A stretch of DNA of 22,931 bases from NCBI GenBank assembly GCA_030378035.1, contig JAUCGI010000075.1, positions 1-22,931 on the forward strand. Direction: 5' to 3'. The position numbers were made by a program, and so were the translations under genes. Numbering within the stretch: position 1 is the first letter of the stretch; every line of letters begins with the position of its first letter. This stretch comes from Desulfobacterales bacterium HSG2 (lineage in GTDB: Bacteria; Desulfobacterota; Desulfobacteria; Desulfobacterales; 4be13). Shown here one piece after another: positions 11,655-12,061 of this stretch. The notes beneath the pieces were generated by a model that was given only the letters and a program-made list of their open reading frames with translations, was not told the origin of the DNA and ran no database searches.

Positions 11655-11927
11655 ATGACTACACTTCTGAAGAAGGCATTCTCATTGCCTCAGCCCGAAC
11701 AGGAACGGCTGGGTGCAAAGTGGATTGCCGAGATTAAAGCGGGACAAATTCGGCATCAGTTGTTCAGGGCGTCAGAGGAACATCTGGAAACGCGCCATAA
11801 AAATGAGCGGTTACTCGAAGCCCTTAATGCCGCGTACGATGATATGCCGGATGCTGAGGAGCAGACACTTCTCCGAAACATGCGACGTCATCACAGACAA
11901 TTCATTAAGGAGAACGAGCAATGGTGA
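11655..11927 (+). CDS. Small hypothetical protein (90 aa), function unknown
   Basis: SD GGAGGA is 5 nt upstream of ATG 11655. The protein MTTLLKKAFSLPQPEQERLGAKWIAEIKAGQ... is helical and charged. Its stop TGA overlaps the ATG at 11921 (ATGGTGA). The ORF track's start at 11580 runs through the palindrome and is less likely. Confidence 0.45.
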   Translation: MTTLLKKAFSLPQPEQERLGAKWIAEIKAGQIRHQLFRASEEHLETRHKNERLLEALNAAYDDMPDAEEQTLLRNMRRHHRQFIKENEQW

Positions 11928-12048
11928 TCAAGCACCAAGCACCAAGCATCAAGCATCAAACATCAAGCATCAAACACAAGCATCAAACATCAAGCATCAA
12001 GCATCAAACACAAGCATCAAGCATCAAGCATCAAGCATCAATTTTTAA
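11925..12048. repeat. Heptanucleotide microsatellite (CATCAAG/CATCAAA/CACAAG)n, about 17 units, exactly filling the gap between the small gene's stop and the TrpD2-like ATG
   Basis: Read directly. The 141 nt between ATG 11921 and ATG 12062 are open and in frame with the downstream gene, translating as (IKHQ/TSS)n. Confidence 0.9.
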
Positions 12049-12061
12049 AAGGAAAAACTTT

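Follow-up and report, generated by a model that had tools for sequence, protein, structure and literature searches.

A heptanucleotide array in the probable place of a lost toxin gene, between an orphan antitoxin gene and a TrpD-family gene of Desulfobacterales bacterium HSG2

This report concerns an array of heptanucleotide repeats located upstream of a TrpD-family gene in Desulfobacterales bacterium HSG2, on a stretch of 22,931 nucleotides (positions 1-22,931 of contig JAUCGI010000075.1, assembly GCA_030378035.1) that is referred to throughout as the window. The features of the locus all lie on the forward strand. The first is a gene for a Zn-dependent alcohol dehydrogenase-like (ADH-like) protein (10499-11521, likely start ATG 10556; Pfam ADH_N 1.4e-21), the end of which is overlapped by a T/G-rich array of short units (11504-11585; TTGATGT, TTTGTGT, CTGGTGT and TTGATGG) that was detected by Tandem Repeats Finder (TRF) at 11504-11571 with a period of 7. 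It is followed by a perfect 16-bp palindrome (AGACCTCCGAGGTTTT / AAAACCTCGGAGGTCT; 11596-11628) in the leader of a small open reading frame (ORF) of 90 aa (11655-11927; NCBI hypothetical protein QUF72_13170), identified below as a putative orphan antitoxin gene. At 11907-11929 lies what appears to be the relic start of a lost PemK/MazF toxin gene, consisting of a Shine-Dalgarno (SD) sequence (AAGGAG, 11907-11912) and the codons ATG GTG ATC (M-V-I). The array itself (11927-12041) is non-coding, is built of CATCAAG, CATCAAA and CACCAAG units together with two 6-nt units, and, in an inverted pair with the T/G-rich array, represents the 3' arm. A unique spacer (12042-12061), in which a TAA (12046-12048) closes one frame, carries the TrpD-family gene's own SD (AAGGAA, 12049-12054) and leads to the gene itself (12062-13129; glycosyl transferase family 3, Pfam PF00591 and PF02885), which encodes 355 aa from its true start.

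A 15-nt tandem duplication (CGGAGGTCTGGAGGA, 2.1 copies, 11620-11650) was found to overlap the palindrome and to supply the GGAGGA SD of the antitoxin ORF; in the leader of that ORF, palindrome and duplication (11596-11650) may act as an operator or as a structural element. A scan of 11400-12200 for promoters and terminators identified no terminator-like or sigma-70-like site between the three genes, and comparison of the whole window with Rfam at gathering thresholds gave zero family matches. The genomes closest to the window's TrpD-family locus in a genome scan were those of Desulfonema magnum (87%) and metagenome-assembled genomes (MAGs) of the Desulfococcaceae, and the source contig is that of a Desulfonema-like sulfate reducer. 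A literature search for 'Desulfobacterales bacterium HSG2' turned up nothing.

TRF described the array at 11927-12041 with a period of 7 (16.7 copies, 87% matches, score 174) and with a higher-order period of 34 nt at 92%. Read unit by unit, its 115 nt consist of fourteen seven-base units (ATCAAGC, ATCAAAC, ACCAAGC), two six-base units (ACAAGC) and a 5-base partial unit, and the double unit CATCAARCATCAAR, allowing at most one mismatch, was found 11 times in the window against 0.11 occurrences expected from shuffled sequence. A CRISPR-like nature was ruled out for the arrays, as whole units repeat without variable spacers.

An earlier examination of this DNA from its letters and ORFs alone (the sequence-only reading) had proposed that the array encodes a low-complexity N-terminal extension of the downstream protein, which changes in unit number would switch on and off. 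Its description of the junction was largely borne out. ATG 11921-11923 does overlap the stop codon of the small ORF (TGA 11925-11927; caATGGTGAtc), and the tract from ATG 11921 to ATG 12062 is open and in frame over 141 nt, or 47 codons; the AAGGAG is likewise present, at a distance of 8 nt from the ATG and not the 7 nt given. Openness of the tract follows from its composition, because no forward frame of the unit CATCAAR can contain a stop codon: TAA, TAG and TGA are absent from all forward frames of 11927-12041, 13 TGA were counted on the reverse strand, and two of the three frames remain open from the array all the way to 12062. The landing of the relic ATG in frame with the TrpD-family gene is a chance of approximately one in three and carries no evidence of coding. 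When unit number was altered in silico, a change by a multiple of three left the ORF from 11921 fused to the TrpD-family protein, one additional unit caused it to stop at TAA 12046-12048, 13 nt before the real ATG, and the loss of one unit caused it to cross the real start out of frame and to end at approximately 12173. The frame logic of the proposed toggle was thus reproduced as three states by this simulation, but nothing was found in support of a selected biological meaning for it. In the NCBI annotation the gene is given in its long form of 402 aa (MDM8551032.1, 'anthranilate phosphoribosyltransferase'), and the 355-aa form is absent from the collection.

Comparison with homologues showed the start of the TrpD-family protein to be conserved at 12062. 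The 120 best homologue cluster representatives cover 94-100% of the 355-aa query (98-100% for 119 of them) and are mostly 353-365 aa in length; the motif LR.FG at residue 7, matching a start at 12062, is present in 107 of the 120, and the few longer homologues mostly possess an internal Met at the canonical start position. Furthermore, 23 orthologous loci were read, one of which is cut off at the end of its contig, and all 22 complete starts begin with M-[SAIT]-[SLTEK]-E-x-x-L-R-[EDA]-F at the point that matches ATG 12062. Upstream of these starts, the loci carry non-coding, variable DNA that is unrelated between them, and a block containing the SD, AAAGGAAAAAC(C)TTTATGTCTTCAGAAACT, running into TTTATG, is common to the window and its 92%-identical orthologue L081. 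These 107 homologues and 22 orthologous loci argue against the claimed extension as a selected feature; it is moreover impossible in L081, and an orthologue of at least 90% identity (L165) lacks the array. The 402-aa record MDM8551032.1 is probably the product of a mis-called start, with 47 spurious residues derived from the repeat.

The label TrpD2/YbiB given to this protein by the sequence-only reading was not upheld, as the NCBIfam model for YbiB (NF006005) failed with 43 bits against a cut-off of 185. The downstream protein passed the NCBIfam TrpD model (TIGR01245; 264.5 bits, cut-off 199), and its 25 best matches in the PDB are anthranilate phosphoribosyltransferases, followed by two weak matches that are thymidine-phosphorylase-like, with YbiB not among them. 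In the alignment it possesses GTGSD and KKGAR where solved TrpDs have GTGGD and KHGNK. On these comparisons, the protein may belong to a divergent paralogue of TrpD that uses another substrate and was spread through horizontal transfer. The protein is unusually conserved, with identities of 63-87% across Desulfobacterota, Verrucomicrobiota, Lentisphaerae, Bathyarchaeia and Methanocella (loci L001-L161).

In the Desulfobacterota relatives examined, a Zn-dependent ADH-like gene usually precedes the TrpD-family gene, and in at least 15 related loci the ADH-like C-terminus (...KFIVKL-stop) was separated from the TrpD-family ATG by 20-300 nt that hold no small ORF. As the two genes directly adjoin in relatives, the antitoxin segment of the window would be an insertion in this lineage.

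Among 5.8 billion clustered proteins, only two further homologues of the small ORF were identified (P0122 and P0123, 61-63% identity), and it matched no family in Pfam or NCBIfam. At the three homologous loci (L162, L163 and L164, with two distinct antitoxin proteins), the next gene encodes a PemK/MazF toxin (PF02452, 8e-26), the ATG of which overlaps the antitoxin stop in all three at the same SD-ATGGTA junction, the toxin starting with MVIRQGD. This junction could be aligned base for base, with aaggagaacgagcaATGGTGATC in the window against gaggagaacgaacaATGGTAATA in L162 and gaagagaacggacaATGGTAATC in L164, the toxin reading MVIRQGDVFWVD. Over a longer stretch, gaggagaacgaacaATGGTAATAAGACAGGGG of L162 (M-V-I-R-Q-G-D-V-F-W-V-D) stands against aaggagaacgagcaATGGTGATCAAGCACC of the window, in which ATG GTG ATC (M-V-I) is all that survives of the toxin sequence. 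The break in homology is sharp: nucleotide homology to the toxin-antitoxin (TA) loci, as determined with blastn, extends from 11644 to 11928/11929 and ends exactly where the array begins. A tblastn search of the whole window with the two toxins returned nothing below E = 0.98, meaning that toxin-like sequence is absent and that relocation of the toxin within the window was rejected.

P0122 and P0123 each directly precede a PF02452 gene, and the gene downstream of the small ORF in the window is not a toxin gene; on this homology, the locus is best described as an orphan antitoxin and not as a complete type II TA module. The antitoxin ORF is intact, and its dN/dS of 0.17-0.20 relative to the toxin-linked homologues is a signature of purifying selection. 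The relic SD and ATG are embedded in the conserved last codons of the antitoxin (K/E-E-N-E/G-Q-W-stop; here ...K-E-N-E-Q-W-stop), and because they are held inside these codons, their survival needs no selection for initiation. What the sequence-only reading had taken as a signal for the extension, a good SD with an overlapping ATG, is explained as the inherited start of the lost toxin gene. Compared with degenerate TA loci of the MazEF/PemIK class, the locus is similar in having an intact antitoxin, with homologues that are paired with an overlapping toxin, and in missing the toxin itself. It differs in that the body of the toxin appears cleanly replaced by a microsatellite after codon 3, with the relic start reading into a neighbouring housekeeping-type gene, and in that the antitoxin has no matching Pfam or NCBIfam family. 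Decay of TA loci is recognised to leave orphan antitoxins in some cases.

The explanation favoured here, with a probability of roughly 0.78, is that a non-coding array took the place of a lost toxin gene and that the relic ATG reads into the TrpD-family gene by chance, the arrangement being a result of decay and not a built-in switch. A type II TA cassette, consisting of the antitoxin and an overlapping PemK/MazF toxin, would once have been situated between the Zn-dependent ADH-like and TrpD-family genes, and the toxin gene would then have been lost, with nothing left of it but the SD, the ATG and the opening three codons (M-V-I). We infer that the toxin was deleted, as opposed to never having been present. 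The heptanucleotide array now occupies the space from the end of the toxin homology to 20 nt before the TrpD-family start codon, with the TrpD-family gene keeping its own SD and its start at 12062 like its relatives. Reading from the relic ATG remains open through the stop-free array, and a chance match of frame yields the 402-aa ORF annotated by NCBI. The arrays at 11927-12041 and 11504-11585 represent the C/A-rich and T/G-rich arms, respectively, of a pair that brackets the antitoxin, with pairing predicted in a read-through transcript. The intergenic short-unit arrays of this lineage, often in the form of hairpin-forming inverted pairs, would turn over fast by slippage. As slippage alters unit number, ribosomes reinitiating at the relic ATG after the antitoxin would meet one of three fates. 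This three-fate logic is mechanically correct, with nothing to indicate selection for it; translation from 11921 would be incidental, and the arrays would be without a locus-specific function.

The array was found not to be conserved among orthologues. In L081 a heptamer array lies directly before the shared SD block, and its units (CTGATGT, TTGATGT and TTGATGC) are the reverse complement of the window's unit. A TGA is contained in each of them and the frame of the gene's ATG hits TGA within six codons; with the array in this stop-filled orientation, no in-frame extension is possible. L165, a cluster member of at least 90% identity, has no array within 149 nt of its start. Degenerate CATTAAC/CATTCAT units occupy the ADH-trpD spacer in the clade L004/6/7/8, octamer and nonamer hairpins are found at the TrpD-family site of the genome HSG8, and in D. 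magnum and numerous other relatives this gene is without an array. A stop-free tract was also identified in L167/L168 (77%; L167 is from a stromatolite metagenome), where the 119-nt ADH-trpD spacer (L167 3001-3120) is made up of GTGGACNNN and AACTCAC/AACCCGT arrays and can be read in frame without a stop from an ATG sharing bases with the ADH stop (ATAATG). The gene is called there as 397 aa (P0057), which on its sequence is an independent artefact of the same kind as in HSG2, namely a repeat-derived N-terminal extension. Turnover of the repeats was observed between species only (L081 and L165 against the window). Exact look-ups of the 355-aa and 402-aa proteins and of the antitoxin found no second contig of the same organism, and scans of genome and metagenome collections found nothing closer than 87% and 84% identity, respectively.

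The array is real but is not an isolated microsatellite, and its complementary partner had been missed by the sequence-only reading: the array at 11504-11585, which starts inside the last codons of the ADH-like gene, is an inverted complement of 11934-12014 (39 nt at 77% and 19 nt at 89%). When a 571-nt RNA was folded in silico, the two arrays were predicted to form a duplex over their length that encloses the antitoxin gene, with a minimum free energy of -205 kcal/mol (z = -8.2). Further foldbacks were found at four other intergenic spots of the window, comprising five hairpins with z from -3.0 to -13.4. A giant one is formed by a hexamer array, (ACTTAA/ACTTGC)n, at 3422-3607 and its complement, (AGTGCA/AGTTTA)n, at 3655-3774, with arms of approximately 120-185 nt around a loop of 47 nt and a predicted energy of -173 kcal/mol (z = -13.4), and it ends 76 nt upstream of a fusion gene for a rubredoxin-like and pyridine-nucleotide-disulphide-oxidoreductase (rubredoxin-reductase-type) protein (ATG 3850). 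The others are inverted short-unit arrays of CTTGAT/AAGATC at 7435-7520 (z = -4.6), CACGAAACA/CTTTCGTTT at 19186-19335, present twice and forming two hairpins (z about -3), and ATCTTG/GATCAA at 19651-19711 (z = -7.3). The perfect (ACTTTTA)n array at 7921-7958 (5.4 copies) was unpaired in the fold; it ends 22 nt before the ATG of a gene (7981-10476, forward strand) for a bacterial protein of 831 aa that is homologous to the major vault protein of eukaryotes (Pfam MVP_shoulder 2.5e-28, Vault_3 9.6e-9).

Enrichment of such arrays was observed across the lineage. Arrays with units of 5-9 nt were found at a density of 0.39/kb in the window, 0.31/kb in D. magnum and 0.30/kb in HSG8, compared to 0.017/kb in 1.16 Mb of more distant loci, and eight of the nine short-unit arrays of the window fall in the 24% of it that is non-coding (P = 7e-5). 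In cultured D. magnum, a (GGCGAGG)n/(CCCCTCG)n hairpin (z = -7.2) was identified, along with a (TAACACY)14 array that ends 7 nt before an ATG. Within the 23 kb of the genome covered by this comparison, the unit differs at every array locus, with only a loose CTTGAT/ATCAAG theme recurring (at 7435, 11504, 11927 and 19651); the hexamer CTTGAT is the reverse complement of ATCAAG, the core of the unit at 11927-12041.

Tandem heptamer direct repeats (TAACTGA) located intergenically just upstream of start codons have been described in marine Beggiatoaceae, cyanobacteria and Bacteroidetes (MacGregor 2015, PMC4679880), and the intergenic regions of Nostoc contain runs of heptamers in both orientations (PMC2408588, Table 3). 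The window's arrays resemble these repeats and the short tandemly repeated repetitive (STRR) sequences in being tandem units of 7 nt that are almost exclusively intergenic, that lie close to starts or overlap an upstream ORF at its end (the array ends 20 nt before ATG 12062) and that occur at many loci; indels in 7-nt steps between strains, abundance in large filamentous bacteria and an unproven function also belong to this likeness. The window differs in having units that are specific to each locus (CATCAAG, ACTTTTA, ACTTAA, CACGAAACA and others) and no single heptamer shared genome-wide, in arrays that are longer (up to approximately 30 copies) and present in many cases as inverted foldback pairs, and in its host, a sulfate reducer of the Desulfobacterota. 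Neither 'Desulfonema' nor 'Deltaproteobacteria' occurs in the main text of PMC4679880 (0 occurrences each), and a literature search on tandem repeats in Desulfonema turned up nothing relevant.

Several points count against decay as the explanation. Both the SD and the ATG of the relic are undamaged and translationally coupled to an antitoxin ORF that is itself intact, and some ribosomes may initiate there and produce the 402-aa fusion. No second genome of the same species was found in the scans of collections to show either variation or constraint in unit number, and the exact copy number may be unreliable as it derives from a short-read assembly. In addition, short arrays recur in the ADH-trpD spacer of L081, L002, L004/6/7/8 and L167, which could reflect selection for a regulatory leader and not neutral turnover.

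Such a leader is the alternative that survives best, although it must be considered unlikely. In this model the array would be transcribed as part of an intercistronic or 5'-untranslated hairpin, and the length of this hairpin, fixed by the number of units, would adjust how stable the TrpD-family mRNA is, how it is processed (for example by RNase III) or how it is translated. Such a model is compatible with a relic origin of the ATG and adds a function for the array. It is based on the (ATCTTTC)n array upstream of hmw1A in nontypeable Haemophilus influenzae, which is transcribed, forms one arm of a long 5'-untranslated hairpin and is cut by RNase III (Rapun-Araiz 2025, PMC12721329). The arrangement in the window resembles hmw1A/hmw2A in that a heptamer array precedes a start codon as one arm of a long RNA hairpin, here a predicted one, and is expected to undergo slippage. 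For hmw a unique G-rich segment serves as the partner arm and expression rises or falls with the number of units, whereas the putative partner in the window is a second array, located on the other side of the antitoxin gene at a distance of 340 nt. Heptamer repeats of Nostoc are reported to influence the expression of recF and recO (preprint, bioRxiv 10.1101/2022.06.06.494920), and this, together with the TAACTGA repeats (PMC4679880), offers further precedent. The predicted pairing along the full length of the arrays (z = -8.2) is in keeping with a leader, as are the arrays or array hairpins that precede a number of genes in the window and in D. magnum, among them one that ends 7 nt before an ATG, and the recurrence of short arrays in the spacer of several relatives; the result of the promoter and terminator scan makes co-transcription of the three genes plausible. 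Against this, the unit, the orientation and even the presence of the array vary among orthologues at least 90% identical, D. magnum and many relatives lack an array at the TrpD-family gene, and the SD and ATG of that gene lie outside the paired region. Complementary arrays of low complexity, moreover, always score well in folding.

A broader and rather improbable proposal is that inverted pairs of short-unit arrays are a distinct class of hairpin-forming intergenic element of Desulfonema-like filamentous sulfate reducers, which would parallel the cyanobacterial STRRs but with locus-specific units and would act as length-tunable RNA or DNA structures. At the present locus, slippage would then truly switch ribosome traffic from the relic start between making the fusion protein, terminating shortly ahead of the SD of the TrpD-family gene and reading over its start out of frame. 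Such arrays might also drive gene decay, because both toxin genes of the window (the PemK/MazF gene and a HepT gene described below) end at repeat arrays.

That the locus is a contingency locus, in which unit number would switch the TrpD-family protein among extended, short and translationally coupled states and the extension itself would be selected, is considered quite improbable. It would account for the open in-frame ORF, for the SD and ATG coupled to the upstream stop, for the three states reproduced by the simulation and for the 402-aa form annotated by NCBI. Set against it are the conservation of the start at 12062 in 107 of 120 homologues and in 22 of 22 complete orthologous loci, the absence or impossibility of the extension in the closest orthologues, the origin of the SD and ATG in a toxin gene, with antitoxin codons holding them in place, and the compositional nature of the openness. 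The intragenic simple sequence repeat loci of Neisseria and Haemophilus are alike in having a repeat of a length that is not a multiple of three between an ATG and the body of an ORF, so that slippage shifts the frame. They differ from the window, where the functional start (12062) is located downstream of the repeat and has its own SD, where the repeat-encoded segment is not conserved and where the product is a cytoplasmic TrpD-family enzyme. A metabolic enzyme of this family is also unlike the surface or restriction genes that are usually under phase variation.

A foldback-type mobile element, in which the inverted arrays would be terminal inverted repeats that carried the TA cassette into the ADH-trpD spacer, is highly improbable. 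TA modules are common cargo of mobile DNA, and segment 11586-11926 is both bracketed by inverted arrays and absent from all relatives, where ADH and trpD adjoin. The left arm, however, runs into the ADH coding sequence, and a target-site duplication is not visible at the locus. The other array pairs of the window have loops of 7-47 nt without cargo and units that differ, and so do not represent copies of a single element. The homology shared with the TA loci is also limited to 11644-11929, and a left-type array lies directly at the trpD SD in L081, which makes it probable that an array was present before the insertion. Least probable of all is an artefact of short-read assembly or chimeric amplification affecting the tract, or its length and inverted partner, for although the copy number of 115-nt arrays can be mis-assembled and contigs of relatives do break inside such arrays (L081 ends in one), the array has an internal variant structure (the 34-nt period) and unique flanks on a 22.9-kb contig, and the same architecture recurs in unrelated MAGs as well as in cultured D. 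magnum, the genome of which is complete.

Other features of the window were also noted. In the region comprising 13179-13910, 13833-14421 (reverse strand), 14473-14589 and 14678-15006, a HepT/MNT TA pair is bracketed by two arrays with units of 77-78 nt, which have the same orientation and each contain a GGGGGATTGCCAAATCCCCC hairpin, and a perfect 36-nt array of 3.2 copies is located beside the start of MNT. The HepT ORF matches only positions 1-50 of the 110 of its profile, with its last approximately 25 codons running into the 78-nt array, and by this comparison it is the window's second toxin gene to be truncated where a repeat array begins to be read. The only short-unit array in coding sequence is a 21-nt in-frame repeat at 17582-17715 (7 aa, 5.6 copies; 42-nt period at 92%) inside ORF 15009-18872 (reverse strand), which encodes a UvrD-like helicase of 1287 aa. 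A 139-nt unit is repeated 3.4 times (90% matches) at 22234-22707, downstream of an M50-peptidase/HlyD-like gene (19944-22181). Genes for a protein with MACPF and hemopexin domains (1331-2860, forward strand) and a protein with caspase (C14) and SH3 domains (5706-6743, reverse strand) are also present, and gene types of this kind are reported in conflict systems of multicellular prokaryotes.

The elements found here, intergenic heptamer arrays and a decayed TA locus, are of known kinds. With the toxin gene probably lost, the locus shows a TA module decaying to an orphan antitoxin with a microsatellite in the toxin's place. In repeat-rich genomes, gene callers will repeat the spurious N-terminal extension wherever stop-free arrays precede genes. 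Start-codon-proximal heptamer arrays, known in cyanobacteria and giant sulfur bacteria, are extended by these findings to Desulfonema-like sulfate reducers, in which many occur as foldback pairs, and if the arrays prove to be regulatory, this lineage would offer many natural length variants.

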